64,000 nt of DNA from Candidatus Limihabitans stercoravium (GTDB lineage Bacteria; Bacillota; Clostridia; Christensenellales; CAG-314), in assembly GCA_018715495.1 (NCBI GenBank), contig DVLO01000010.1, forward strand, positions 35,302 through 99,301, written 5' to 3'. Shown piece by piece: positions 29,866 to 52,296 of the stretch. Within the stretch, counting starts at the first letter, position 1, and every line of letters begins with the position of its first letter. The notes under the pieces were generated by a model that saw nothing but the letters and a program-made list of their open reading frames with translations, was not told where the DNA came from and searched no databases. The translations under genes and the position numbers were made by a program.

Positions 29866-29900
29866 AAGCGGTGCGGACTGTTTATGTCCGTACCGCTTTT
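29866..29900 (+). terminator. Rho-independent terminator
   Basis: AAGCGGTGCGGAC / GTCCGTACCGCTT followed by TT. Confidence 0.7.
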
Positions 29901-29991
29901 AAATTTGTAAAATGTGCGGTAGGTTGTAGGGCAGGTGTCGTTCAACGTGTTTTTTCGATGTTGCCAAAAGCGGTAGCGGTACAACTCAATT

Positions 29992-30002
29992 TGTGGTATA
30001 AT
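29992..30002 (+). promoter_or_regulatory. Extended -10 promoter element TGTGGTATAAT upstream of mutT
   Basis: TGnTATAAT consensus; the same 13-mer TTTGTGGTATAAT occurs in front of uvrC. Confidence 0.45.
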
Positions 30003-30029
30003 GTAGAAAAACATTTCGGGTGGTGTAGC

Positions 30030-30410
30030 GTGGTAGAAGTAGTAGCGGCATTGATTTGGAAGAAAGACAGGTTTTTAGCCTGCCAGAGACCTCACAACAA
30101 GGCAAGAGCATTGTTGTGGGAATTTGTAGGCGGCAAGGTGGAAGCGGGAGAGAACAGGCAACAAGCCCTTGTACGTGAATGTCGTGAGGAATTGGGGATT
30201 ACAGTAAATGTCGGCGACGTGTTCATGGAAGTTGTGCATGATTACCCTGACATTACAGTGCATCTGACATTGTTCAACTGTACCATTGCCGAAGGTCAAC
30301 CGCAGAAATTGGAACACAACGACATACGTTGGATTACAACAGAGGAAATACCCAATTACAATTTCTGTCCTGCCGATGACGAAATACTGAAAAAACTGAT
30401 GTCCATGTGA
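30030..30410 (+). CDS. mutT: NUDIX hydrolase, MutT-like (8-oxo-dGTP diphosphatase type)
   Basis: Nudix box GGKVEAGENRQQALVRECREELGI. I prefer the GTG at 30030, which gives 126 aa, because the ORF-track start at 29871 lies within the upstream terminator. Confidence 0.7.
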   Translation: MVEVVAALIWKKDRFLACQRPHNKARALLWEFVGGKVEAGENRQQALVRECREELGITVNVGDVFMEVVHDYPDITVHLTLFNCTIAEGQPQKLEHNDIRWITTEEIPNYNFCPADDEILKKLMSM

Positions 30411-30501
30411 CGGACTGCCCGTCGTGTCATTGCCGTTTAGCAGTTTTTGAAAAATGTGGCAGTGTATTGTTTTTTTTCGTAACGTCATTGTATTTTAACG
30501 C

Positions 30502-30533
30502 AAAAAAAGTCCAAGTATCTCTACTTGGACTTT
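30502..30533 (-). terminator. Terminator of upp (usable in both directions)
   Basis: AAAGTCCAAGTA / TACTTGGACTTT; the flanking A-run reads as a U-run on the minus strand. Confidence 0.75.
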
Positions 30534-30549: not shown

Positions 30550-31188
30550 TTACTTTGTTCCGAAGATACGGTCGCCTGCGTCACCGAAAGCTGTAACGAT
30601 GTAACCCTTTTCGTTCAGCGGTGCATTTGCAAAGTGTGCAACGTAAATCTTGACGTCGGGGTGACGTTCCGCAACACGCTTGATTCCTTCGGGTGCTGCA
30701 ATCAATGACAGCAACTTGATGTTCTTGCATCCTCTTTGTTTGATGAAGTCGATTGCTGCAGCGGCACTTCCGCCTGTTGCAAGCGCAGGGTCAACAACCA
30801 TTACCTGACTGTCGGGCGCTTCCTTGGGCAACTTGCAGTAGTATTCGTGTGGTTCAAGTGTTTCTTCGTCACGGTACAATCCGATGTGTCCGATTCTTGC
30901 CTGCGGAAACAGTGCGACAAGACCGTCTACCATTCCAAGACCTGCACGCAGTATCGGTACGATTGTTACGTCGTCCTTTATTACAGGGGACATGAACTTA
31001 GACAATGGTGCCTGAATTTCCACTTCTGTTGTTGCAAGATCTCTGTACGCTTCGTAACCCATCAGCATTGCAACTTCGCTGACGATTTCACGGAATTCCT
31101 TTGTTCCCGTTGTGACGTCGCACAGTTTGGTTATCTTGTGAGCAATGAGCGGATGATTGAAGATTGTTACGTTTTTCATGTAATCCAT
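30550..31188 (-). CDS. upp: Uracil phosphoribosyltransferase
   Basis: [17 protein letters not shown] and [11 protein letters not shown] (PRPP site); 212 aa. Confidence 0.9.
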
Positions 31189-31264
31189 TGTAGTAATCCC
31201 CTTTAAATTGGTTTTAATCAGTATATATCAAAGGCGCCGAAAAGGCAAGTTTTTTCCAAACACA

Positions 31265-31293
31265 TTGACATGATGTGTGTGGTATGCTAAAAT
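31265..31293 (+). promoter_or_regulatory. Sigma-A-type promoter of pyrR
   Basis: TTGACA, a 17-nt spacer, then TAAAAT. Confidence 0.55.
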
Positions 31294-31322
31294 ATTGTTA
31301 CTGTAAAAATGAGGTGTAATAT

Positions 31323-31847
31323 ATGAACATCAAGGCTCAGATCATGGACGAACAGGCGATACGCAGGGCGTTGACACGTATTTCTTACGAAATTATTGAA
31401 CGTATGCCCGACCTGTCCAATGCCGTACTTGTGGGAATCAAGACAAGGGGTATTCCCATTGCAAAGGTTTTAAAGAAAAACATTGTTGCTTCCACAGGCG
31501 TTGACATTCCACTGTATCAGTTGGATGCACGCAACTATCGTGATGACATCAATCCCGAACAACGCACTGACAGTAAGTTTAGTGGAGACATTGCAGGTAA
31601 GGATGTAATTCTTGTCGATGACGTACTGTTTACCGGACGTACTACACGTGCGGCAATTGAGGCGATTCTGGACGCAGGACGTGCCTCAAGCATCAAACTG
31701 GCGGTGCTTGTAGATCGTGGACACCGTGAGTTGCCTGTCAAGGCGGACTTCGTAGGAAAGAACATTCCCACTTCCATGAAGGAAAAGGTTGTTGTTGCGG
31801 TTGGACCGTTGGACGGCGAAACAGGTGTGTTCATCTACGAACAGTAG
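31323..31847 (+). CDS. pyrR: Bifunctional pyrimidine operon regulator / uracil phosphoribosyltransferase PyrR
   Basis: 174 aa; AIRRALTRISYEIIE and VILVDDVLFTGRTTRAA. Confidence 0.9.
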   Translation: MNIKAQIMDEQAIRRALTRISYEIIERMPDLSNAVLVGIKTRGIPIAKVLKKNIVASTGVDIPLYQLDARNYRDDINPEQRTDSKFSGDIAGKDVILVDDVLFTGRTTRAAIEAILDAGRASSIKLAVLVDRGHRELPVKADFVGKNIPTSMKEKVVVAVGPLDGETGVFIYEQ

Positions 31848-31897
31848 TGGCAATTGCTTGTTGTACTGCTGTAAAACACAATTAAATCGGTATAATT

Positions 31898-31936
31898 AAA
31901 GCACACTGTGAGTGTTCTCAGCAGTGTGCTTTTTTG
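31898..31936 (+). terminator. Terminator between the convergent pyrR and uracil permease genes
   Basis: AAAGCACACTG / CAGTGTGCTTT followed by TTTT. Confidence 0.75.
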
Positions 31937-31953
31937 TTATATTCTGTGGGAGG

Positions 31954-33405
31954 TTAGTTGTTTTCTTGTGTAGCAGTTGTCTGTTCATCTGATTGGTATT
32001 CTTCAACGATTACCATTCCGGATTCTTCATCTTCTTCTGTTTCGGGACGCTTGCCAACGATTGCATTTGTGATAAGACCTACAATCAGTGCTGCTGCAAC
32101 AGCTGTGATGCTGAATGCTGCACCGCCTGTGATTTCATTCTTACCGAAGTTGAATGCAAGTCCGCCGATACCGCATACAAGGATTGATGCAACTACGAAC
32201 AGGTTTCTGTTGTCGCCAAGGTCAACCTTCTTGAGCATCTGCAAACCGCTTACTGCGATGAAACCGTACATTGCGATACAAGCACCGCCCATTACACATT
32301 TGGGGATTGTGTTGATTACAGCAACGAATGGTGTGAAGAATGCAAGCACGATACAGCCGATACCTGCTGTCATGATTGAGATTACAGAAGCGTTCTTTGT
32401 GATTGCTACACAACCTATAGATTCACCGTATGTTGTGTTTGCACATCCGCCGAAGAAAGCGCCTACGATTGAACCAAGACCGTCACCAAGAAGTGTTCTT
32501 GTAAGACCGGGATCCTTGATAAGATCTTTTTCAACGATTGTGCTGAGGTTCTTGTGGTCAGCGATGTGTTGAGCAAGTTCAACTACACCGATAGGAGCGA
32601 ACAGCAGTGCAAGGTTACCGATTGCAGCGGCATCCAGAGGATATTGACCTTGAGTCTTGATTGCCATCAAGAATGTGAAGTCAGGGATACGAAGGAAACT
32701 TGAGAATGTGATTGTTCCGAATGCATCGATGAAAGGTTGGAAGTTTACGATTTTCAGGCTGTCAACCTTAGCGATGTATCCGATTGCTGTAAGTATCAAT
32801 GTGAACACGTAACCAGCGCCGATACCTACGATGAAGGGAATCAACTTGAATGTCTTGTTACCCTTTGTCGATGTAAGTACGATTGTAAAGAAGGTAATCA
32901 AACCGCAAACTATGGAGAGCAGGCTGTAGCTTTCAGCTGTTCCGCCGTTGTGCATGATCCAGTCTGTAGCTGTGGGGGACAATCCCAAACCGATGATTGT
33001 TACAACAGGTCCGATTACTACTGCGGGCAACAACTTGTTTACCCAACCCGAACCGATGAACTTAGTGATGATTGCAAGTACGATGTAAACCAATCCTGCG
33101 AAAGCAACACCGATAATCAGTCCCCAGTAACCGTAGTTCTGAGTAGCTGCCGCACTCATTGCGCCAAGGAACGTGAATGAGCTTCCAAGGAATACGGGGC
33201 TCTTTCTCTTAGTGCAGAAGATGTAAACCAGTGTACCAAGACCTGCACCAAGCAGTGCTGCCGATAGATCCATTGTGAGACCAACGCCTGTGATGATCAT
33301 GGGAACAAGCAGTGTTGCAGCCATGATTGAGATCATTTGCTGGAATGCAAAAATCAGCGTCTTTTTGAAACCGGGGTTGTCTGAGATGCCGTAGATGAGT
33401 TTCAT
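31954..33405 (-). CDS. pyrP: Uracil/xanthine permease (NCS2 family) with an acidic C-terminal tail
   Basis: Polytopic, with NCS2-like blocks (QHIADHK.., GESIGC). I chose the ATG at 33405, preceded by GGGAGG; the ORF-track start at 33459 lies in the leader. Confidence 0.85.
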   Translation of the reverse strand: MKLIYGISDNPGFKKTLIFAFQQMISIMAATLLVPMIITGVGLTMDLSAALLGAGLGTLVYIFCTKRKSPVFLGSSFTFLGAMSAAATQNYGYWGLIIGVAFAGLVYIVLAIITKFIGSGWVNKLLPAVVIGPVVTIIGLGLSPTATDWIMHNGGTAESYSLLSIVCGLITFFTIVLTSTKGNKTFKLIPFIVGIGAGYVFTLILTAIGYIAKVDSLKIVNFQPFIDAFGTITFSSFLRIPDFTFLMAIKTQGQYPLDAAAIGNLALLFAPIGVVELAQHIADHKNLSTIVEKDLIKDPGLTRTLLGDGLGSIVGAFFGGCANTTYGESIGCVAITKNASVISIMTAGIGCIVLAFFTPFVAVINTIPKCVMGGACIAMYGFIAVSGLQMLKKVDLGDNRNLFVVASILVCGIGGLAFNFGKNEITGGAAFSITAVAAALIVGLITNAIVGKRPETEEDEESGMVIVEEYQSDEQTTATQENN

Positions 33406-33427
33406 TTTGTTACCTCCCAAAATTTTG

Positions 33428-33470
33428 CAAAAAAAAACCTTGTGTACGTACAGAAACATACAACAAGGTA
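33428..33470 (-). terminator. Leader terminator/attenuator upstream of the uracil permease; candidate PyrR-controlled
   Basis: On the minus strand: ACCTTGTTGTA...TACACAAGGT followed by T9. It lies between the promoter and the RBS. Confidence 0.5.
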
Positions 33471-33548
33471 GACCTTTACATTAGAAGTATAACCAAATGT
33501 GAATTCTTGTCGATATCTCTGTATCGTTTTTAAAGATTTCTGTGACGT

Positions 33549-33577
33549 ATTCTAGCACAGCAATTACAAGGTGTCAA
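33549..33577 (-). promoter_or_regulatory. Sigma-A-type promoter of the uracil permease leader
   Basis: On the minus strand: TTGACA, a 17-nt spacer, then TAGAAT. Confidence 0.5.
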
Positions 33578-33656
33578 ACATTTAAACGCACTTTTTTTAA
33601 CAATTGTTGATTTTTATTTTAAGTTGTTGTACAATGTAGAAAACAAGGAGGCGGAT

Positions 33657-34076
33657 ATGAAAATACTGGTCAGCAAGTGTCTGTTGGGATACAATTGTAG
33701 GTACAAGGGTGACAACTGCCTGAATGCCAAAGTAATCGATCTTGTAAAACAGGGACATCAGGTTGTTGCGGTGTGCCCCGAACAGGACGGCGGATTGCCC
33801 ACCCCCAGAGACCCCGGCGAAATCGTAGGGGACAAGGTACTTACTAAAGAGGGCAAGGATATCACTGCCGAATACCGCAAGGGTGCGGAACACGCTCTTG
33901 AACTTGCCCGTAAAGAAGGTGTCGATATGGCGGTGCTAAAGAGCAAGAGTCCGTCATGTGGTTGTGGCAAGATTTACGACGGCACATTTAGCGGAACGCT
34001 GAAAGATGGCAACGGCGTCACTGCTCAGCTGTTGTTGGACAACGGCGTAAAGGTAGTAACTGAGGAGTTACTTTAA
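33657..34076 (+). CDS. DUF523 family protein (TudS-like, the family of 2-thiouracil desulfidases)
   Basis: MKILVSKCLLGYNCRYKG, CPEQDGGLPTPR and KSPSCG cysteine motifs; AAGGAGG RBS. Confidence 0.8.
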   Translation: MKILVSKCLLGYNCRYKGDNCLNAKVIDLVKQGHQVVAVCPEQDGGLPTPRDPGEIVGDKVLTKEGKDITAEYRKGAEHALELARKEGVDMAVLKSKSPSCGCGKIYDGTFSGTLKDGNGVTAQLLLDNGVKVVTEELL

Positions 34077-34829: not shown

Positions 34830-37064
34830 CTATTTTATTAACTCGTACTTGAACAACAAAGGAACTATGTAATCATTATAGTAGACTTTTACAGTAGTAT
34901 CTAGAGTTTTTATTGCTGTATTTAAATTAGCATATTTATAAACAAGTACGGGTTCGCCTTTACTATTTTCACGTCCTGAATCTATTTTTATATTTATATC
35001 TTCAAGTATCTGCCATGTGCCAAAACGGAAGTTTGGATTTCTTGAAACCGTTGCTTTGTATTCGTCAGTACGCATTGCTTCGTAAACTACATCATCCCAG
35101 TATTTTAATAATCTATTTTCAATCTCGGATAATACGTGACCATCATTTATAAAATTCGCCAAACTATTGTAAGCAATAGTGTCTTTTTGATCAAAGCATA
35201 ACTCGTTTCGATAAAACCGACCATCACTCCCCAACAGAGATCGACATTTGTTTTTCGAGGTCAATGCTGTATAAATTAAGCAACGTTTAAGAAATTCCTT
35301 GTCGGTTAAGTAACTTCCTTGTCCATCGTAGGACTTCGAATAGACATCAGTTTTATACCATTTATCGTACGCAAATGTCGCAGCTGCAAATAACGGTAAC
35401 TTTTCTAGGAAATTATCACATCGCAGATAAAATCCATGAGCCTTATATAAACCACCTCTGGTTAAAGTCACATCTTTCCTGTCGATTTGAAAATTACTTG
35501 TCATGAGATAAGCTAATATATTTTCATTAAATAGTGGTGTTATATATTTTTTACGACCGTTTTCAATAAATTCCGTTCCGTCCCTTTCGAAAATGATTCC
35601 CAGTTGGTCATTTTTGAATGTGCGTTTGTCGTAAGCCTCAGAAAGATTGTGGTAAGCTTTTCTAATTATAATTTCATCATCTATTGCTTTATGTACTTTA
35701 TCACCAACAATATCAAAAGCTGTTAGTCTCAGCGAAGTTGTTTCGTAGTCGTCAATATTGCTCCAATGTATGCAACCTATTGCAGAATTTTGAGAAGCAT
35801 GAAATTCTTTTCGATTACATAAAAATCCGCCCCAAAACTTTTTGTTTACAAGATTTTGATTTCTCCAGTATTTGGTTGGTGAATATAAAATGTAACTATC
35901 AGTAGGTTTTTTTAGGTAATATTTAAATCCACTCCAAATAAAAAGATTAGAAAGGTCGTTTAGTACTACTCCCTTATGTTCTTCACGCATTCTTTGAATA
36001 ACGTAGCTTTGTTTCCATGCATTTTCTTTTTTACCTGTGTTTTGAGTACCGCCACTACCAGATTCACTAAATGGTGGATTTTCCATTAAAATTACAACAC
36101 AGTTTTTATCATTTATTTTTTCACGTATGTAATCGTTAGAAACCCCTTGTTCGTTATGCTCGGCGGGAATAATATCGTAAGCTAATGCGTCTGTATTTGG
36201 AATAACGACTAAACATTTGTCCCCATATTTTAAATTTAACAACACGTACTCGTTGAATTCAATAGTGGACAAAACACAATGCTTTAATATTTCATCGGGT
36301 AACCCCTCTTCTAAGTTTCCTGTGCCTGCACAACGATCAATAATAATATAGTCCATTCCATGGGGAATCTTATTTATTGCTTTAAACAATAATTTGTGCA
36401 TCTCGTTTACATAAGCTCTGGGTGTGTAGTATGCTCCATGTTCTCTTTGAAGTAATCCTGGATTCAAACAGTCCATTATGTCTTCAAATTCAATGTTGGT
36501 AATTTTTTCGTAAGGGTATATTCTATCTTTTAAAATATTTGGCTTGCGTATTTCTGCATTTGCACCTTTTATAAAACTGTCTTTGTTTGGGTTTAATTTG
36601 TAGTATTGCTGCGAAAGCCCAATAATATTAAATTTATCAACGTGGTATTTAACAAAATTATTGCTGTTTACATACTCAAATAGTTTTTGAAGACCAAGGC
36701 TTGTAGAATAATCGATTTCAATGTGTTTTGCTTTTGTAGTAAATTCGTCATTTCCTTTGCTTGCAGCTCCGAAATAAACTTTTTCAATATCTTCAAGCAA
36801 ATCTTCTGATTGAAATATGTATGCTATTTCTCGATTTAAATCATTAAGAATAATATTCGCAGGAAGTTTTTCTCCCCTAATACGAATACGTGAAGCGTAT
36901 TTAACGGCTTGAAATAATACCTTATTTATATTATCTATATTCAATTTGTTTTCATAAAGATTGCCTTTATCTATCCCGTCTGTGTTATGTGACAAATCGG
37001 GGTTAATTCCTATTTTATTATAAAATTCTTTTTGACCATCTATTTCTGCCAAGTAAGCTTTCAT
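34830..37064 (-). CDS. Gamma-class N6-adenine DNA methyltransferase, large single chain; candidate Type IIG/IIL (MmeI-like) restriction-modification enzyme
   Basis: Motif X GAYYTPRAYVNEM; motif I DRCAGTGN (36315-36338); motif IV NPPF (36069-36080). About 400 aa lie C-terminal of motif IV, consistent with a TRD (target recognition domain). The N-terminus has GID-x5-E-x-K. I chose the ATG at 37064, preceded by AGGAG. Confidence 0.75.
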   Translation of the reverse strand: MKAYLAEIDGQKEFYNKIGINPDLSHNTDGIDKGNLYENKLNIDNINKVLFQAVKYASRIRIRGEKLPANIILNDLNREIAYIFQSEDLLEDIEKVYFGAASKGNDEFTTKAKHIEIDYSTSLGLQKLFEYVNSNNFVKYHVDKFNIIGLSQQYYKLNPNKDSFIKGANAEIRKPNILKDRIYPYEKITNIEFEDIMDCLNPGLLQREHGAYYTPRAYVNEMHKLLFKAINKIPHGMDYIIIDRCAGTGNLEEGLPDEILKHCVLSTIEFNEYVLLNLKYGDKCLVVIPNTDALAYDIIPAEHNEQGVSNDYIREKINDKNCVVILMENPPFSESGSGGTQNTGKKENAWKQSYVIQRMREEHKGVVLNDLSNLFIWSGFKYYLKKPTDSYILYSPTKYWRNQNLVNKKFWGGFLCNRKEFHASQNSAIGCIHWSNIDDYETTSLRLTAFDIVGDKVHKAIDDEIIIRKAYHNLSEAYDKRTFKNDQLGIIFERDGTEFIENGRKKYITPLFNENILAYLMTSNFQIDRKDVTLTRGGLYKAHGFYLRCDNFLEKLPLFAAATFAYDKWYKTDVYSKSYDGQGSYLTDKEFLKRCLIYTALTSKNKCRSLLGSDGRFYRNELCFDQKDTIAYNSLANFINDGHVLSEIENRLLKYWDDVVYEAMRTDEYKATVSRNPNFRFGTWQILEDINIKIDSGRENSKGEPVLVYKYANLNTAIKTLDTTVKVYYNDYIVPLLFKYELIK

Positions 37065-37185
37065 GATTGAATCTCCTATCGTAAATGCATACCAATTGTA
37101 ATGCAATTGCGTTAATTTGTCAATTTAATTGCGTATTATATTAAACGCAGATGCATAGTATAATAGCATAAAGGAGATTGCCTTT

Positions 37186-37479
37186 ATGGATATAATAGCG
37201 AAAATAGAAAAATTGAAGAATGATAGAGGTTGGACTGATTATGAGCTTGCTCAACAATCAATGCTTACGCAGTCTACAATCGCTTCAATAAAGGCACGTG
37301 GAACGGCACCTAAGGTAGAAACATTACAAGCAATTTGTAATGCTTTTGGAATTTCGTTAGCACAGTTTTTTTTAGAAGATGAAAGCATTGATATGCTAAG
37401 TGAACAAGAAAAAGAGCTAATTGAAAGATTTAGAAAATTGCCAATTAAGAAAAAACAAGCACTTATTGATTTATTGTAG
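37186..37479 (+). CDS. XRE-family helix-turn-helix regulator, divergent from the methyltransferase (controller-protein-like)
   Basis: HTH_3 pattern (WTDYELAQQSMLTQSTIASIKARGTAPKVETLQAICNAFGISLAQFF); AAGGAG RBS. Confidence 0.8.
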   Translation: MDIIAKIEKLKNDRGWTDYELAQQSMLTQSTIASIKARGTAPKVETLQAICNAFGISLAQFFLEDESIDMLSEQEKELIERFRKLPIKKKQALIDLL

Positions 37480-37530
37480 ATTAGCAATCATAAACTATTT
37501 AATGAGTTAAAACTTGATATTAAACAATGA

Positions 37531-37563
37531 AAAGAACACGACAAACGTCGTGTTCTTTTTGTT
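37531..37563 (+). terminator. Rho-independent terminator after the XRE gene
   Basis: AAAGAACACGAC / GTCGTGTTCTTT followed by TT. Confidence 0.75.
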
Positions 37564-38961: not shown

Positions 38962-40779
38962 TCAGGCATAAATACCGTCAAAAAAGACGTACTCCGTTGC
39001 CGTAATTGCGGCAGTGAATGGAGAAAAATCCTCTCTTGCTGTCGGTACATAGGGCGTTGGATTGTAGTCGTACTTGCTGGAAATTGTGCCTCCACCTGTG
39101 ATGTTGCCGAACATTTCTCCCCAACCTCCACGGTAGTTCAGGTATTCCTGGAAATCGTTGTAGTGGTTGTAGGTGTAGAACAGGTAACGTTGGTTGGGTG
39201 TCAGTGTTGCGCCGTTGTCCGTCTGTGCGTAAACAATTCGTGCCGCTCCACGTGTAATCGTTTCGCCGTCATTGTAAATTTCTGACGGGTAACTGGGATC
39301 GCAGTCCGTCCCTGTAGTTCCGATATCTATTTCGTAGTAGCGCATTGTTCCGCCACATCCGCTGATGTTTGGAAGTACAGGTTCGTAAGGGTACTTTTCG
39401 GTGTCACCGCTGAAATAGGAATGGTTCAATCTGAGATATTCCGCCCAATCGGAAGAAGTCGGACTGGTGTATTTACTGGAAACGTAGTTTGCGGGTATGT
39501 CGCCGAATGCGAATACGTAGGCTGCAACGTCTTCCAACGTTACGTAAGCGCCGTCACGGTAGATTTCGTCTACTATCTTGCCGTATTGGTCAAATACGTA
39601 GTAGGTGTTTCCGTTTACCGAAAACAGAACTGATGTGTTGCGCACGAACATTCCGTCAGATGTCGGTTGATTGTCGGCAATGGTGGGTTCCTGATCTTGC
39701 TCTGAAATGTCACCCGACATCAATGCTTCGTCGGAACGGAATCCTGCGTCCACCCAGTTTTCGGCTTCGGTGTAATTGTTGTAGAAGGTGTTTTTGTTGG
39801 TGTTTCTGTACGGGTTGGTCAGTGTGTCGGGGTCAACAACCGTTATTTCTGCGGGTGCGCTGTAGTAGTTGTCGTACACGGCTTTTACTTTAATCGTACC
39901 GCTTGAGTAGGCGGTCAATATGTCTCCGTTAATTGTTGCAATTGTTCCGCCTTCTACAATTTCGAATTCAAATTGCACATTGCTGTAGGCATTATCTTTG
40001 AATGTTGCATTCAACTGCAGTCGGTCGCCCTCAAGCAGTTCATCCTTGTAGAGTTGCATTTCCAGTAATTCCATGTCGGGCCGGGGCGATTGCATTACCA
40101 CAATTTCCATTGTGTCGGAGTACTTGCCTGCAGTAATGGTTACAGTGCAGTTGCCTTTCTTTTGTGCGGTTGCTATACCTTGTTGCGTAATTGTCACAAC
40201 GTCATTGGATACCGTCCACACAATTTTTTCGGTAATTCCCGATGTGATTGTGTACTGCAACCGGAATGTTTCTCCGACATTCATTGTCTTGGTTTTTTCC
40301 ACAAAAGAAATGCTGTTGTTGTCTTCCCCTGCCAGTACCGTAATTGTAATGGTGTCGGAGGATTGTCCTAAAATTATTGTGACAGTGCAATTTCCTTCTT
40401 TCAGCGCTGTCACCAATCCGTCGGGAGCAATTGATACTACGTCGTTGGATGTTGTCCATGATACGTTGTGAGGTTTGTCATCGCTGATGGCGTAGGACAG
40501 GTAGTCCGATTGTCCTACAGTAAAGGTTATGCTGTCTTGGATAAACTGAACTGTTGGGTCGGGAGTGGATGTTGTTGTGTCAGTAACTGTTATGTAAACA
40601 AGATCACTGGCTTCGCCTGCACGTACAATTACTGCGCAGACACCGGAAACAAGTCCGACTACAAGTCCTTTGTCAGAAACGCTGACATTGTTTCCTGTTG
40701 CCGACCATTGCAGCTGATCCTTTATATCTTCTGTAACGGTATATTTGAGCTGGATAGATTCACCTACCTTCAATTTCAC
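38962..40779 (-). CDS. Barnase-family ribonuclease with several Big_2-like Ig domains. The true 5' end is probably the ATG at 40909, out of frame because of an A8 tract.
   Basis: The C-terminal domain is a paralogue of 37638..38846, with visibly high nucleotide similarity. The frame stays open upstream to 40905 and encodes IFSAVCLILALLIFSGCS (lipoprotein signal) with no in-frame start. Confidence 0.75.
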   Translation of the reverse strand: MKLKVGESIQLKYTVTEDIKDQLQWSATGNNVSVSDKGLVVGLVSGVCAVIVRAGEASDLVYITVTDTTTSTPDPTVQFIQDSITFTVGQSDYLSYAISDDKPHNVSWTTSNDVVSIAPDGLVTALKEGNCTVTIILGQSSDTITITVLAGEDNNSISFVEKTKTMNVGETFRLQYTITSGITEKIVWTVSNDVVTITQQGIATAQKKGNCTVTITAGKYSDTMEIVVMQSPRPDMELLEMQLYKDELLEGDRLQLNATFKDNAYSNVQFEFEIVEGGTIATINGDILTAYSSGTIKVKAVYDNYYSAPAEITVVDPDTLTNPYRNTNKNTFYNNYTEAENWVDAGFRSDEALMSGDISEQDQEPTIADNQPTSDGMFVRNTSVLFSVNGNTYYVFDQYGKIVDEIYRDGAYVTLEDVAAYVFAFGDIPANYVSSKYTSPTSSDWAEYLRLNHSYFSGDTEKYPYEPVLPNISGCGGTMRYYEIDIGTTGTDCDPSYPSEIYNDGETITRGAARIVYAQTDNGATLTPNQRYLFYTYNHYNDFQEYLNYRGGWGEMFGNITGGGTISSKYDYNPTPYVPTAREDFSPFTAAITATEYVFFDGIYA

Positions 40780-41037
40780 ATCTTCATCCAGTATCTTGAC
40801 TGATGAAGGTTGTGTAATCGATGGGAGATTTAAAAGACTACATCCGCTGAATATAAGCAGTGCCAGTATGAGGCAGACTGCCGAAAAGATTTTTTTTGTG
40901 TTTTTTCATTATCTTTACCTTTCAAGTGTTGGTTTGGTTGTTTGACTTCGTTAATGTACGTCTGTCAAAAAACGGGTAATGTTGATTATAATACTAATTG
41001 TGTTTTGTGTCAAGATGTGTCTTGCAACGGACACTAG

Positions 41038-43609: not shown

Positions 43610-44173
43610 TTAACCATTTATCAACTGGTCGGCTTCGTTCAGTATTTGATTAAGGCGAGAACGCATTCTTTGAACTTCGTTGTCCCATTTAGCTTGCCTT
43701 TCTTTCATCTCATCCTTGTGTTTGTTGTAGTTGGCAATGCGGATGATATATATGACGATTGGCAACAATGCACCGACGGCAATCCCTATGTAAGTTACAA
43801 TTTCGCCTGCAAGACCGGGCAACAACTTGAATGCAAGAAAGGCAAGAATTACCATTCCGATAAGGTGGGGAATGATACTCGGTTTTTTGAAAGGATTGCC
43901 TGCTTTAGACTTGGATTCAAGTTCTTTCTCGGTTGAAATGTATTCCGATTCCAGTTGTACCACCTTGTTGTACCAAGGAGAGGATTTTTCCCTTGAAAAA
44001 GTTATTTTATTGAAGGTAGAGTAGTGTTGTGTTCCGTCGGAATCCTGTTTGGTAAATTCCTGACATCTCTGATTGTTTATTACTTCCCAACCGAAGTTTT
44101 CCCAAAATGAGATTGTAGCATTAATTTTTGCGTCATCCGGGTAAACTTGTACTGTCTTTGTTTCCCTTGCCAT
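43610..44173 (-). CDS. Hypothetical protein: small N-terminal globular domain (DUF4177-like GWEV pattern), two TM helices and a C-terminal coiled coil
   Basis: GGAGG RBS. Hydrophobic block at HLIGMVILAFLAFKLLPGLAGEIVTYIGIAVGALLPIVIYII. Confidence 0.5.
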   Translation of the reverse strand: MARETKTVQVYPDDAKINATISFWENFGWEVINNQRCQEFTKQDSDGTQHYSTFNKITFSREKSSPWYNKVVQLESEYISTEKELESKSKAGNPFKKPSIIPHLIGMVILAFLAFKLLPGLAGEIVTYIGIAVGALLPIVIYIIRIANYNKHKDEMKERQAKWDNEVQRMRSRLNQILNEADQLING

Positions 44174-44293
44174 TGTACTTCCTCCTTTGATTTAAGCAAA
44201 ATACAACATATTTCGCTTATAATGGAAGTATTTTAACACTAAATATAGTGTATGTCAAGCAATGCACACTAAATTAGATGTATCATTTATCAC

Positions 44294-44503
44294 ATGAGTA
44301 GTCTTGGCGAAAATTTAAAATATCTGAGAAAGATAAATAAAATCAGCCAGAAGGAATTTGCCTTGAAAATGAATACTACCCAGCAGAGAGTAAGTGAGTG
44401 GGAGTGCAATAAGGTAGAGCCCTCACTTTATAACATCGTTAAAATTTTACATTTATACAACATTACATTTGAAGAGTTGATGGAAGGAATTGATATAAAT
44501 TAG
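44294..44503 (+). CDS. XRE-family HTH regulator (69 aa)
   Basis: LKYLRKINKISQKEFALKMNTTQQRVSEWECNKVEPSL; divergent from 43610..44173. Confidence 0.8.
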   Translation: MSSLGENLKYLRKINKISQKEFALKMNTTQQRVSEWECNKVEPSLYNIVKILHLYNITFEELMEGIDIN

Positions 44504-44519
44504 TGTTTATTGAACAGTT

Positions 44520-44558
44520 ACAGCCTCTGTCGTTATCGGCAGGGGCTGTTGTTTTTTT
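44520..44558 (+). terminator. Rho-independent terminator
   Basis: ACAGCCTCTG / CAGGGGCTGT followed by T-rich sequence (TGTTTTTTT). Confidence 0.7.
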
Positions 44559-44781
44559 AACTAATTTGATTTGGTTTAGTGGTATTGATTAATTTTACGC
44601 ACAAATTGTAACCTTGAAGGCTGTTGTGCTTTCCGGATCATGTTTTGTATTGTAAATGTATTTATTTAACGAGGTAGATTGAACGCTTACAGTTTTACCG
44701 TTTCAATATCCTGTCTGTTTGATTGTTCAACGATAGATTAACAGACAACGTCTGCAAGGTAATTATTTGCAGTAGTGTATT

Positions 44782-45717
44782 TCAATCTGTGTCGAAACGG
44801 TAAATTGTGTAGAATGGTGTTTTCTTAGGTTTGTATGTGCAATCTTTACTTAGTCCGATGTACAGTATCGAGGTAGCCTCGAAAGATTTTTTGATTACTA
44901 AGCAATTTCCTTTTGTGGTAATTGCACACACATCATTGTAAACTTCCCTCTCGGGATGCCAGTGCGTCAGGTTTTTTGTACGGCTACTGTTTGTGTTTAT
45001 GCTGATACAGTCCTCGTCTATTTCAACAAACAGATCCTTGCTTTCCCAGTGTATTACCTCATCGTTTACCAAGGTAAATTTGCCGCCAAGGTTGTCCGTC
45101 AACATCAGCATGTCGTACAGTTGTTTAGCGTTACGTGGTACTGTTGACAGTATTTTCCAGTTGGTTTGTTCCAGTGCATTTTCGTAGTTGTTTACCACAA
45201 AGAGGCAATCGGGAACTTGTTCTTCGCTAATGAAGTCATCTTCAATGATTGTTCTTTCCACAATGAGTTTTACAGGGAGGTTTTTCAGATCGTCAGGCAG
45301 TGACAGTTTCAGTATTTCCGCTTGCTGTTCTATGTTGCACAGGCTTTCTTCACGGTATTTACGGTAAATGCCTTTCAGTGTTCCGTCAACAACTTTCATT
45401 GATTGAAATTCATTAAAAAAATACAACGTCCCACAGTATTCGAAGTAATCGGGACAGCCTTTCCTATGGGTGTACGTTATGTTCAGTTCTTTAAACTTGT
45501 CACACATTGCGTTGTAGAACAGGTATTCGGGGCGTGAATTAATTGCGCTTTTGTAGTTTTCGGAAAAGTCATTGTAGTAACGTGATTTCTTGTATTCTCT
45601 TATTGGTTTTATGGATTGAAACGGATATGCCACCGCCAAGAAAATGGCTGACAATACAATTAACGGCGACAATAAAATGCAAAGTAATGCTATCAGTAAT
45701 TTAGTGTACCACTTCAT
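44782..45717 (-). CDS. Hypothetical N-terminally membrane-anchored protein (311 aa)
   Basis: I chose the ATG at 45717, preceded by AAGGAGAAAGG. The ORF-track start at 45846 runs through a hairpin. No family recognised. Confidence 0.5.
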   Translation of the reverse strand: MKWYTKLLIALLCILLSPLIVLSAIFLAVAYPFQSIKPIREYKKSRYYNDFSENYKSAINSRPEYLFYNAMCDKFKELNITYTHRKGCPDYFEYCGTLYFFNEFQSMKVVDGTLKGIYRKYREESLCNIEQQAEILKLSLPDDLKNLPVKLIVERTIIEDDFISEEQVPDCLFVVNNYENALEQTNWKILSTVPRNAKQLYDMLMLTDNLGGKFTLVNDEVIHWESKDLFVEIDEDCISINTNSSRTKNLTHWHPEREVYNDVCAITTKGNCLVIKKSFEATSILYIGLSKDCTYKPKKTPFYTIYRFDTD

Positions 45718-45901
45718 ATCCTTTCTCCTTTGCACAATTGTATCACATTGTATTGCAAATTGCAATACAGTTGGCTGAACACAACAAGCCGTCCCATCGT
45801 TCGGGACGGCTTGTAAAGTCTTTGGATTTGTAATTGTTAAATTCAATGGGTAGTTTGTTTCTGAACAGCTGTGTTGACAGTGCTTTTACAATTTCTTGAA
45901 G

Positions 45902-46218
45902 TTACAGTGCAACTCCCCAGTTGATTTGCAGTGGTGCGCCGTAAGTACCGTTCCACGATGTGTTCCAGCTTGACGGCAGGCTGGGTGCTTCGATGTTTAC
46001 TACCCCGATGCATTGATTGAATACACTTTCGCCTACGTATGTCACCGATTGAGGAATGTAGAAAGATGCAATCATCTTACACCACGAAAAAGCGGTGTCG
46101 CCGCCGTTGCAGCAAAGTGTTCAAGATTGTGTTTGTGCCCGCTGTTACATGCTGTCATGCCGAACGTTGCTGTTGCAATCAACACGGCAAGCAGTAGCAG
46201 TGCAGTTGTCTTTTTCAT
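45902..46218 (-). pseudogene. Remnant of a BspA-type leucine-rich-repeat lipoprotein (frameshifted and truncated)
   Basis: On the minus strand, GGAGG precedes MKKTTALLLLAVLIATATFGMTACNSGHKHN..., which stops at 46072. An overlapping -1 frame from 46075 encodes MIASFYIPQSVTYVGESVFNQCIGVVNIEAPSLPSSWNTSWNG...NWGVAL. This is a typical terminal LRR unit plus tail. Confidence 0.4.
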
Positions 46219-46579
46219 TTGTGCCTCCTATTGTCAGATTTCAGACAAATTACTTGAGTTGCTTTGTCTGAAATTCACTGATTTCTAAAATGTATTCAGC
46301 GGCACATTATGTACTGTTTTTCCGTCTTTGGCAACCGTTCTTGCTGTCAATGTGTTTTAATGAGCGGTAAAGCTAATCTAAAAGTGCATATTATGTTGAT
46401 GTTCTGCCAATGAATTGTGTAAAACACAGTAGAAGGCTAAATGATGAATGATAGATGATGCGTGTTGAGTTGCAAGACATGATGCGTGTACTTCTATTCA
46501 TTGAGGTTAGTGGAATGGTTAAGTTGGAAAATCCAGTGTAAACATAATCCCTGACAGCGAAACAGGGTTTTTCATGGTA

Positions 46580-46748
46580 GCCGTGTGCAACACCGTCACA
46601 TTATTTCAACTTCCTGAACCAAGCAAAAAAAAGAAGGCGAAGCCAAAACGAGAAATGAAAAACAAGGCAGTTGTTCACTGCCTTGTTCGTTGCTGTCAGT
46701 ATGTATTGAAATAAAATAAAAACACGGCAACCAAGATTTACTTAGTCG
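46580..46748. repeat. Direct repeat copy A (169 bp)
   Basis: Aligns end to end with 46876..47041 with a handful of substitutions and two short indels. Contains an 11-bp hairpin followed by a T-run on the minus strand. Confidence 0.85.
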
Positions 46749-46875
46749 GCATTGCCATGCAGGCACTGGGGGGGGGAAAATTGTTGTTGCCTAGTTGCCG
46801 TACGCAGTACTACTGCCGTAGGGGCGCTTTGTAAAACTTTATGTGGACATCAATCTCAAAAGTGAAACACTAGTT

Positions 46876-47041
46876 GCCGTGTGCAACACCGTCACATTAT
46901 TTCAACTTCCTGAACCAAGCAAAAAGAAGGCGAAGCCAAACGGAGAAATGAAAAACAAAGCAGTTGTTCACTGCCTTGTTCGTTGCTGTCAGTCTGTATT
47001 GAAATAAAATAAAAACACGGCAACCAAGATTTACTTAGTCG
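46876..47041. repeat. Direct repeat copy B (166 bp)
   Basis: See copy A. It is followed directly by a third GCCGTGTGCAACAC and by the copy of the tRNA 3' end. Confidence 0.85.
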
Positions 47042-47243: not shown

Positions 47244-47320
47244 TGGTCTGGGTGACAGGACTTGAACCTGCGACCCCAAGACCCCCAGTCTTGTGCGCTA
47301 CCAAACTGCGCTACACCCAG
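47244..47320 (-). tRNA. tRNA-Pro, anticodon GGG, with encoded CCA
   Basis: The 77-nt cloverleaf was folded by hand. Acceptor CTGGGTG/CACCCAG; D arm GCGC/GCGC; anticodon stem CAAGA/TCTTG with loop CTGGGGG; T arm GCAGG-TTCAAGT-CCTGT; discriminator A, then CCA. Confidence 0.9.
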
Positions 47321-50063: not shown

Positions 50064-51854
50064 GTGGACAAACAAGCGTTACAGGTTCTGAAAAAAGGTA
50101 ATCAATCGGACACTCGTGTGCAGTTGACTCCGTGGGCTGATGTGGGCAACAGACCTTTGCAGGAATATCCACGCCCGCAGTTTGCAAGAGAAAGTTACAT
50201 CAATCTCAACGGCTGGTGGGATTACTGTATTGACAGCAACTTTAATCCTCCGGAAGTGTATCAGGGCAGGATTCTGGTACCCTTTTCGCCTGAAAGCATT
50301 TTGTCGGGAGTAGGTAAGCAGCTCAGTCCAACACAGTATCTGCATTACCGCACGCAGTTTTCCTACCCCAAGAATTTCAACAAGGGAAGAATTTTGTTGC
50401 ATTTCGGAGCAGTTGACAACATTGCGCAAGTGTGGGTAAACGGCAAGAATGCGGGCAGTCACAGTGGTGGTTACAACAGTTTTTCGCTGGATATAACTAA
50501 TTTGTGTGAAGATCAGCAATCCAATTTGTTGGAAATCACTGTGCGTGACCCATCTGACACATCCTACTACTGTACGGGGAAGCAGTGTCTTGACCGTCAC
50601 GGAATGTGGTACACGGCGCAAAGCGGAATCTGGCAGACGGTATGGATTGAGAGTGTACCTGACGAATATATTTCCAACGCATTTGTAAACATCGATTACG
50701 ACAATGCTAAGGTCACCGTCAGTCTGCAAAAGAACTTCGACGGACCTGTAACAGCCATAGTGTACGACGGAAGAAAAGAAGTAGCAAAGTCCGACTGCAC
50801 AGGCAGTACCTTGACAATTGAAATGCCCAAGGACTTCAAGTCGTGGAGTCCCGAAGACCCGTTCCTGTACAAGGTGATGTACATTTCCCGCCGTGACAAG
50901 GTGGAAAGTTACTTCGGAATGCGCAAGGTGGATGTAAGACGGGACGAAAAGGGCGTTCCCAGACTGTATCTCAACAACAAGAAGTATTTCCAGTCGGGAC
51001 TGCTTGACCAGGGATACTGGAGTGACGGACTGTACACTGCGCCCAGTGACGAAGCAATGATATACGACATTGAAACGGCTAAAAAACTGGGATTCAACAT
51101 GCTACGCAAACACATCAAGGTAGAGCCAATGAGATGGTACTACCACTGTGACAAACTGGGAATGCTTGTATGGCAGGACATGCCCAGCGGCGGCGGACGT
51201 CAGCACAAGTGGGTAACAATGATTTCACCTTTCCTGGGATTACGTCGCAAGAAAGACAACAAGTACAGGGCATTTTCCCGCAAATCATTGAAGGGTAGAC
51301 AATTGTTCAAGGATCAGTATATTGAAATGTTGCGTCAATTGTACAATTGCGTGTGTATTTGTACATGGGTACCATTCAACGAAGGATGGGGACAGTTTGA
51401 CGCATTGAAGTTTGTCAAACTCACCAAGCAGATTGACCCAACACGTATTGTTGACCATGCCAGCGGTTGGCACGATCAAGGGGGCGGAGATGTACTGAGC
51501 TTGCACATTTACTTCAAGCCGATACGATTGCCCCGTCCCGAACAGGACAGATGTACTGTGGTGACGGAGTTTGGCGGTTACACTCACCGTGACATGGAAC
51601 ACTGTTTCAATACCGGTGCAATGTTCAGCTACAAGGATTTTGACAGTGTGGAAGAATACAACAAGGCAGTTGAACAGCTGTTTGACAAGGAAGTAGTGCC
51701 TGCAATTGACAAGGGATTGTCTGGCTGTGTGTATGTGCAGCTCAGTGACGTCGAAGATGAAGTAAACGGTTTGCTCACTTACGACAGAAAGGTATTGAAG
51801 GCGGATGCCGAAATGTTTAAAAGAATAAACGAAAAACTCAAATATGACAGATAA
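50064..51854 (+). CDS. Glycoside hydrolase family 2 (second short paralogue)
   Basis: LNGWWDY, FNMLRKHIK and WVPFNEGWGQFD. I chose the GTG at 50064, preceded by AAAGGAG. A TGGTAAAAT extended -10 element lies upstream. Confidence 0.8.
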   Translation: MDKQALQVLKKGNQSDTRVQLTPWADVGNRPLQEYPRPQFARESYINLNGWWDYCIDSNFNPPEVYQGRILVPFSPESILSGVGKQLSPTQYLHYRTQFSYPKNFNKGRILLHFGAVDNIAQVWVNGKNAGSHSGGYNSFSLDITNLCEDQQSNLLEITVRDPSDTSYYCTGKQCLDRHGMWYTAQSGIWQTVWIESVPDEYISNAFVNIDYDNAKVTVSLQKNFDGPVTAIVYDGRKEVAKSDCTGSTLTIEMPKDFKSWSPEDPFLYKVMYISRRDKVESYFGMRKVDVRRDEKGVPRLYLNNKKYFQSGLLDQGYWSDGLYTAPSDEAMIYDIETAKKLGFNMLRKHIKVEPMRWYYHCDKLGMLVWQDMPSGGGRQHKWVTMISPFLGLRRKKDNKYRAFSRKSLKGRQLFKDQYIEMLRQLYNCVCICTWVPFNEGWGQFDALKFVKLTKQIDPTRIVDHASGWHDQGGGDVLSLHIYFKPIRLPRPEQDRCTVVTEFGGYTHRDMEHCFNTGAMFSYKDFDSVEEYNKAVEQLFDKEVVPAIDKGLSGCVYVQLSDVEDEVNGLLTYDRKVLKADAEMFKRINEKLKYDR

Positions 51855-52296
51855 AGAAACATTCATGAAAAAGGCGTTAAAGCAAGCACAAGCGGCTTTG
51901 CGACGTGATGAAGTGCCAATAGGTGCGGTGATTGTTCGTGACGGAAAGGTCATTGCAAGGGCGCACAATACACGTATGAAAAGTCGTGACGCAACCGATC
52001 ACGCCGAAATAAAGGCGATACGTCAGGCATGCAGAAAACTGGGTGATTGGCGTCTGAACGATTGTCAGTTGTACGTCACGCTGGAACCCTGTCTGATGTG
52101 CCTTGGCGCATGCTACAACGCACGTATAGGAAAGGTGTATTTCGGTGCTTATGATAAAACGGAAGGCAGGTCGGAAATGTTGAAAAACATCAACACGTTA
52201 AACCACAATCTGGAAACGGAAGGTGGCGTGTTGGAACAACAATGTTCGGAAATGCTGACAAATTATTTTGCACAAAAGCGAAAGAAAAAGTCGTGA
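51844..52296 (+). CDS. tadA: tRNA adenosine(34) deaminase
   Basis: HAEIKAI and TLEPCLMCLGA zinc motifs; 150 aa; overlaps the GH2 gene by 11 nt. Confidence 0.9.
   Translation: MTDKETFMKKALKQAQAALRRDEVPIGAVIVRDGKVIARAHNTRMKSRDATDHAEIKAIRQACRKLGDWRLNDCQLYVTLEPCLMCLGACYNARIGKVYFGAYDKTEGRSEMLKNINTLNHNLETEGGVLEQQCSEMLTNYFAQKRKKKS

Follow-up and report, generated by a model that had tools for sequence, protein, structure and literature searches.

Two tandem genes for RNase-like proteins make up a two-gene unit on the minus strand of the window, by which we mean the whole 64-kb stretch of DNA (43.5% GC) that was analyzed. The first gene encodes a lipoprotein whose start codon and body, in the window, stand in different reading frames at a run of eight adenines; the second encodes a paralogue with an uncleaved-looking N-terminal membrane anchor, no lipobox and a promoter-like site of its own at 38945-38917. 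The promoter in front of the lipoprotein gene (TTGACA-17-TATAAT) is kept in all conspecific loci, and a near-identical one (TACAAT) is present in a relative that is 84% identical. Nucleobase-salvage genes lie around the RNase-like pair, and this neighborhood suggests that the RNase-like lipoproteins scavenge extracellular RNA. The features of the locus are collected in Table 1.

Table 1. Positions of the lipoprotein gene, its start signals, its tandem paralogue and the salvage genes in the 64-kb window.
Feature	Coordinates	Strand	Remark
Promoter TTGACA-17 nt-TATAAT, sigma-70-type	40985..41013	-	12/12 match; 76 nt 5' of the ATG
TTG without a Shine-Dalgarno sequence in front	40923..40925	-	Shares the body frame only at A6
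Shine-Dalgarno-like AAAGG	40918..40922	-	8 nt 5' of the ATG; direct sequence reading
ATG, ancestral lipoprotein start	40907..40909	-	In frame with the body at A7
Dead-end ORF, 23 codons	40838..40909	-	Reading frame of the ATG at A8
Main frame of the lipoprotein body	38962..40905	-	647 sense codons plus stop 38962-38964
Poly(A) tract	40890..40897	-	A8 in the window, equal to plus-strand T8
Hydrophobic core and lipobox codons, IFSAVCLILALLIFSGC	40840..40890	-	Cys codon TGT 40842-40840
Core of the probable barnase/RNase Sa-type domain	39112..39558	-	Family-invariant E, R-x3-R and H
Tandem paralogue, 402 aa	37638..38846	-	Same RNase-like C-terminus; intact in all strains
Terminator-like hairpin	37530..37559	-	Ends the two-gene unit
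Salvage genes: uracil phosphoribosyltransferase, another phosphoribosyltransferase, xanthine/uracil permease, 2-thiouracil desulfurase, cytidine/dCMP deaminase	30550-34076 and 51844-52296		

When the minus strand was re-read, the anatomy given in the preliminary description was borne out in full, from the ribosome-binding site and the ATG through the A8 run and the two frames to the GTG at 40779. Between the ATG (40909-40907) and the A8 run lies AAAAAACAC, and at A8 the frame of the ATG encodes MKKHKKNLFGSLPHTGTAYIQRM before it stops (23 aa). The main frame opens at 40905, behind a closing TGA that overlaps the ATG, and codes KNTKKIFSAVCLILALLIFSGCS, within the longer stretch ...IFSAVCLILALLIFSGCS... 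No ATG, GTG or TTG occurs in the main frame 5' of the GTG at 40779-40777, which is the earliest canonical start in that frame and the start of HIT77591.1, the annotated 605-aa product. The only other in-frame candidates for the A8 allele, the near-cognate codons ATC, ATA and CTG before this GTG, lie far from the Shine-Dalgarno sequence and were rejected.

Deletion of one A in silico yields a 648-aa lipoprotein, MKKHKKIFSAVCLILALLIFSGCSLLN..., that starts MKKHKK-IFSAVCLILALLIF-SGC and has an n-region rich in Lys, then a hydrophobic core, and a lipobox, F-S-G-C, that fits the PROSITE PS51257-type rule. The poly(A) tract itself codes the Lys-Lys-(Ile) of the signal-peptide n-region. Judged by its charged n-region, h-region and lipobox cysteine, the repaired product would qualify as a bacterial lipoprotein and substrate of Lgt and LspA.

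Pfam placed Big_2 Ig-like domains in the body of the lipoprotein, ahead of an RNase-like region at the C-terminus. The catalytic half of this region matched PF00545 in 16 of 20 family members at 19.1-20.9 bits against a cutoff of 24 (E ~5e-4 to 2e-3), and a sub-threshold match to the same model was also obtained in the tandem paralogue. The trimmed core was compared by hhalign with barnase, binase and RNase Sa; the alignments reached E 0.001-0.004 over ~100 collinear columns at 28-29% identity, with low HHsuite probability. A glutamate, an R-x3-R pair and a histidine, invariant in 31-41 family sequences, align on barnase E73, R83, R87 and H102, so that in the alignment the catalytic Glu, the Arg pair and the His stand in the order of barnase and RNase Sa. 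The Glu of this set is the general base and the His the general acid. Sequence, profile and HMM searches of the PDB returned Ig-like domains only and no RNase match, the RNase-like proteins had no match in NCBIfam or PADLOC, and the structure predictions (pLDDT 71 and 60) had no informative Foldseek match in the PDB. We rate the C-terminal domain as probably a barnase-type RNase.

With barnase, binase and RNase Sa (PF00545) the domain shares a collinear core, the FS..E..LP and (D/N)HY..F motifs and an exported location. It differs from them in its length (~150 residues with two large insertions, against ~100-110), in its fusion to Big_2 domains and a lipid anchor, in matches that stay below the Pfam gathering score, and in that no barstar-like partner was found. 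Neither Pfam analysis of the neighboring genes nor tblastn against the window and all loci revealed a barstar-like gene, except for a weak match in one unrelated locus (L051).

Matches to the family of the lipoprotein were obtained in 392 GTDB species genomes; its best 80 loci (L019-L098) come mostly from gut MAGs (Clostridia, Bacilli, Mollicutes-like). Its members combine a variable N-terminal region, often with Big_2, with a conserved barnase-like core of ~260 aa and a lipid anchor. Almost all of the best 80 loci have a lipoprotein signal at the start, and the lipobox cysteine, found in nearly all of them, reaches a conservation of at least 90% in the family alignment. The family matches seen are named 'hypothetical' or 'Ig-like domain-containing' at most; this lipid-anchored Big_2 and barnase-like family is uncharacterized and widespread.

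The 605-aa product that starts at the GTG is identical to NCBI HIT77591.1 from a MAG of Candidatus Limihabitans stercoravium (Bacillota, Clostridia), a species described in a chicken-gut study from Illumina 2x150 reads assembled with MegaHIT (PMC8035907). A search with the repaired protein retrieved a 90%-identity cluster of 48 members, mostly of 648 aa with the start MKKHKKIFSAVCL.... Exact-pattern scans of genome and metagenome contig collections for the tract context gave no match, and a peptide-pattern scan of a metagenome collection returned other species only, at no more than 66% identity; all conspecific alleles were therefore taken from the assembly index. Seventeen conspecific loci, ~99% identical to the window, were recovered as DNA.

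Three tract lengths occur among these sequences. A7, which gives the in-frame 648-aa lipoprotein, is found in 12 conspecific loci from independent samples (BRZ_* and ONAT22-1 ENA assemblies, scaffold_94104 (L003), and Logan ERR4096317 and ERR4096377). A8 is carried by the window and by L004 (ENA ERZ28614538, sample SAMEA6814606), and A6 by L005-L008, from four Logan runs (SRR30169983 to SRR30170042). No allele has a damaged body, which runs for 642 codons from IFSAV to the stop, and when 17 conspecific sequences were aligned over 2.4 kb the poly(A) tract was the sole indel. A8 and A6 belong to different lineages: the pair of A8 sequences is 2 SNPs apart, the A6 group is clonal, and in this alignment the A7 sequence closest to the window is 11 SNPs away. 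The 605-aa product of A8 was found on ~8-10 contigs from NCBI, ENA and Logan, some of which may represent one sample passed through different pipelines. The A6 product is recorded as a 653-aa protein (P0122), for which the gene caller began at the upstream TTG (40925-40923); real use of this TTG is doubtful because no Shine-Dalgarno sequence precedes it. A 635-aa protein (P0127) was considered as a second frameshift background and rejected, as its DNA is A7 and the gene caller had chosen an internal ATG.

Outside the species, the 84% relative (L002/P0002) reads AAC AAG AAA ATC at the tract site, an interrupted AAGAAAA, and L019, the 56% orthologue, carries A7 in frame at the corresponding Lys-Lys-Ile. 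Across the wider family, a run of A6-A8 directly follows the ATG in 20 of the best 80 loci and is in frame in all 20. Such runs may be a by-product of AAA-encoded lysines in the n-region. Taken as a whole, the pattern of an interrupted tract in the 84% relative, A7 in L019 and A6-A8 runs in a quarter of the family loci fits AAA-rich n-regions or selection alike.

Purifying selection acts on the lipoprotein gene species-wide: polymorphism is synonymous at 21 codons and non-synonymous at 13, with a pN/pS of ~0.18. Private to the A8 lineage are a single synonymous change and a single conservative substitution, V326I. The A6 lineage (L005-L008) has three private non-synonymous changes, among them G595D (numbering of the 648-aa protein), which hits the family-invariant glycine of the G-G-W-G-E motif and hints at decay or relaxed constraint after the A6 frameshift. 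The near-absence of decay in the A8 lineage would equally fit a reversible OFF state.

A run of eight is not in itself rare in this DNA, where A/T runs of at least eight number eight in the window. The A8 at 40897-40890 is the sole long homopolymer of the window whose current length disrupts a gene, and in every other long coding run a one-base change would shorten the ORF. Homopolymers of variable length are frequent between conspecific strains across the region: seven further variable tracts are seemingly intergenic, judged by their position relative to ORFs, and one further variable tract is coding (35907-35913, in a neighboring gene of 758 aa). The coding A8 at 37366-37373 and T9 at 33429-33437 are constant among the conspecific loci.

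We propose that A8 is a real +1 slipped-strand insertion into an ancestral A7 tract. Ribosomes that start at the well-placed Shine-Dalgarno sequence and ATG would stop after 23 codons, having made a peptide of 23 residues; the signal peptide with its lipobox and the enzyme body would be left in the +1 frame without a start codon of their own. Since start and body are in different frames and no canonical start precedes the GTG at 40779, the exported protein should not be made by standard decoding. The A8 allele is predicted from its sequence to be null or strongly reduced in expression; low-level initiation at the GTG is possible and would give a signal-less protein. Another lineage of the same species appears to have acquired an independent -1 allele, A6, and each allele would be stably inherited within its lineage. 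The tract would then act as a hotspot from which loss-of-function variants arise naturally; the gene they affect is presumably dispensable and has an intact paralogue next door.

Among the explanations for the frame break that had been offered in the preliminary description, recent inactivation fits best. Of the ON/OFF phase switch proposed there, the slipped-strand origin is supported, since A6, A7 and A8 all exist; rapid switching is not supported, because the lengths are locked to lineages and none of the same-allele counterparts described below was found. The alternative that orthologues likewise lack an in-frame signal peptide fell away, as the orthologues and ~80 family members have one. 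We consider it likely that A8 and A6 arose independently by slipped-strand mispairing at a mutational hotspot, that both are stably inherited frameshift alleles, and that each is null or strongly reduced. The lineage distribution, the missing counterparts, the selection data and the homopolymer comparison together favor such hotspot alleles over a dedicated fast switch.

Classical slipped-strand phase variation, with the exported RNase ON at A7 and OFF at A6 and A8 and with assemblies that show the majority state, is in our judgment an unlikely reading, though one with several observations in its favor. Three lengths occur in one species, two independent OFF alleles leave the gene body wholly intact, and two frameshifts at one tract among about six lineages would also be expected of a contingency locus. 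As in Mycoplasma hominis vaa, the tract occupies the 5' end of a gene for a surface or exported lipoprotein, here with a perfect promoter match in front, and a second A7/A8 coding-tract polymorphism occurs in the neighboring methyltransferase-like gene. A change of one unit in either direction toggles the frame, as at contingency loci (A7 is in frame with the ATG, A8 and A6 are out), and the length varies among close strains (A6, A7 and A8 in 4, 12 and 2 sequences that are ~99% identical). Reversible switching within a clonal lineage was not seen at the level of consensus assemblies, which would conceal switching at 1e-3 to 1e-5 and minority lengths within a sample.

If flipping were frequent, the same allele should be recorded in both states. 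Ten hypothetical same-allele counterparts (the window allele as A7 and A6, the A6 allele as A7 and A8, and A8 versions of six A7 alleles) were looked up by exact sequence in ~15 billion proteins, and 0 of 10 were present. The actual states of these alleles are recorded on ~10, ~8 and 2-6 contigs each; all of the ~10 contigs with the window allele are A8 and all of the ~8 with the P0122 allele are A6, which speaks against phase variation together with the missing counterparts. An A7 tract is short for a dedicated phase switch, and the equivalent Listeria tract has been measured at 1e-7 to 1e-8. The interruption of the tract in the 84% relative (AAGAAAA), the sporadic occurrence of similar tracts elsewhere, where Lys AAA codons occur, and the altered invariant residue in the A6 lineage also weigh against a switch.

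A more elaborate version, in which a three-state switch (A6 and A8 OFF, A7 ON) is paired with an A7/A8 switch 5 kb away in the methyltransferase-like gene and A8 is perhaps leaky, seems to us rather improbable as well. If true, a secreted nuclease of an uncultured gut anaerobe would be phase-variable through homopolymers, and a population of chicken-gut commensal Clostridia would toggle its RNase export.

It is quite improbable that leaky decoding makes A8 a low-expression rather than an OFF allele, with some full-length lipoprotein produced through transcriptional slippage or a +1 ribosomal slip. According to the sequence, loss of one A or a +1 slip on AAA-AAA-A would restore exactly MKKHKK-IFSAV..., the A7 product, and the promoter, Shine-Dalgarno sequence and ATG are intact. 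Transcriptional slippage has been documented on runs of nine A or T and in some organisms on eight A (PMC1088944), which lends the idea some support; the usual threshold, however, is nine (PMC1088944), the tract length is not conserved, in contrast to programmed cases, and the sequence data give no sign of such rescue.

Single-base miscalls in homopolymers are a common artifact, and Illumina 2x150 data seldom miscall an 8-mer at the consensus level. The sequencing or assembly error raised in the preliminary description, under which the true genome would be A7 and the gene intact, could appeal to such miscalls and to A7 as the majority form in the species, but it is very unlikely given that A8 recurs in L004, an independent ENA assembly that is not identical to the window (10 mismatches in 5236 bases and another downstream context), and a second, different frameshift allele (A6) was seen repeatedly, in four runs; against it stand also the 605-aa product on 8-10 contigs from NCBI, ENA and Logan assemblies, the description of the species by an Illumina 2x150/MegaHIT study, a data type that seldom miscalls an 8-mer, and the gene-preserving state of all remaining coding homopolymers of the window.

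By analogy, the closest precedent for the two frameshift alleles appears to be the 5' poly(A) tract of Listeria monocytogenes inlA, where A7 is in frame, A6 truncates the protein and has at least two origins, and an AAGAAAA allele is known (PMC2831843). Rates measured there were 5.5e-7 for A6 to A7 and 3.9e-8 for A7 to A6, ~1000-fold above point mutation and far below classical phase variation (PMC2831843). Both cases concern Bacillota and a tract a few codons past the start of an exported surface-protein gene with A7 in frame; in both, a one-base change truncates the product after a few residues, frameshifts arose independently in different clades, and the AAGAAAA interruption known from inlA is that of the 84% relative here. 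The present locus differs in that both a -1 (A6) and a +1 (A8) allele occur, and whereas inlA has a clade in which one and the same background occurs both ON and OFF, no such clade was found here. The product is here a lipoprotein with a probable RNase domain and in inlA an LPXTG internalin, and the rates were measured for inlA alone.

In Mycoplasma hominis vaa, A8 is ON and A7 and A9 are OFF, with switching at 1e-3 to 1e-4 in clonal populations (PMC524362). The likeness to vaa and similar mollicute lipoprotein genes lies in a 5' coding poly(A) with one in-frame length, from which a change of one unit by slipped-strand mispairing turns the gene OFF. Switching in vaa is fast, whereas here no switching was seen within a lineage and close species do not keep the tract.

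Almost certainly, the entry HIT77591.1 (605 aa, 'Ig-like domain-containing protein') is a gene-caller artifact of the frameshifted lipoprotein gene; it deserves a flag as a frameshift allele and should not be read as a cytoplasmic protein. The locus is a natural frameshift allele of an ordinary kind, with nothing mechanistically new; it extends the inlA-type pattern of a 5' poly(A) hotspot to an uncultured commensal. Within this one gut species, strains would differ in their ability to export one of two tandem RNase-like lipoproteins.

Further differences between conspecific loci were observed in the surroundings of the two-gene unit. The tract at 35907-35913 lies inside the gene at 34830-37106 (minus strand) and is A7 in the window and in L011, where the ORF is intact (744-758 aa); in seven other conspecific loci it is A8, and gene calling there splits the gene into 388 + 213 aa. 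The protein, which has no match in Pfam, NCBIfam, PADLOC or the PDB, contains IIDRCAGTGNL and NPPF motifs and by eye resembles an N6-adenine DNA methyltransferase. A divergent HTH_3 gene (37186-37479) adjoins it. A NUDIX gene at 29871-30410 (plus strand) has 179 aa in the window and L011, whereas gene calling gives 126 aa in a further five conspecific loci, and two variable homopolymers (30470-30477 and 30502-30508) lie just 3' of it.

On the other side of the lipoprotein gene, a segment of ~3 kb (43675-46826) that is absent from seven conspecific loci is flanked by a tRNA-Pro(GGG) gene (47244-47320, minus strand) and bracketed by repeats of ~100-150 nt (46580-46685 and 46827-46978). Between these repeats lies a G9 run (46768-46776) that has only five bases in the single locus with matching flanks. 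The segment is possibly a small integrated element.
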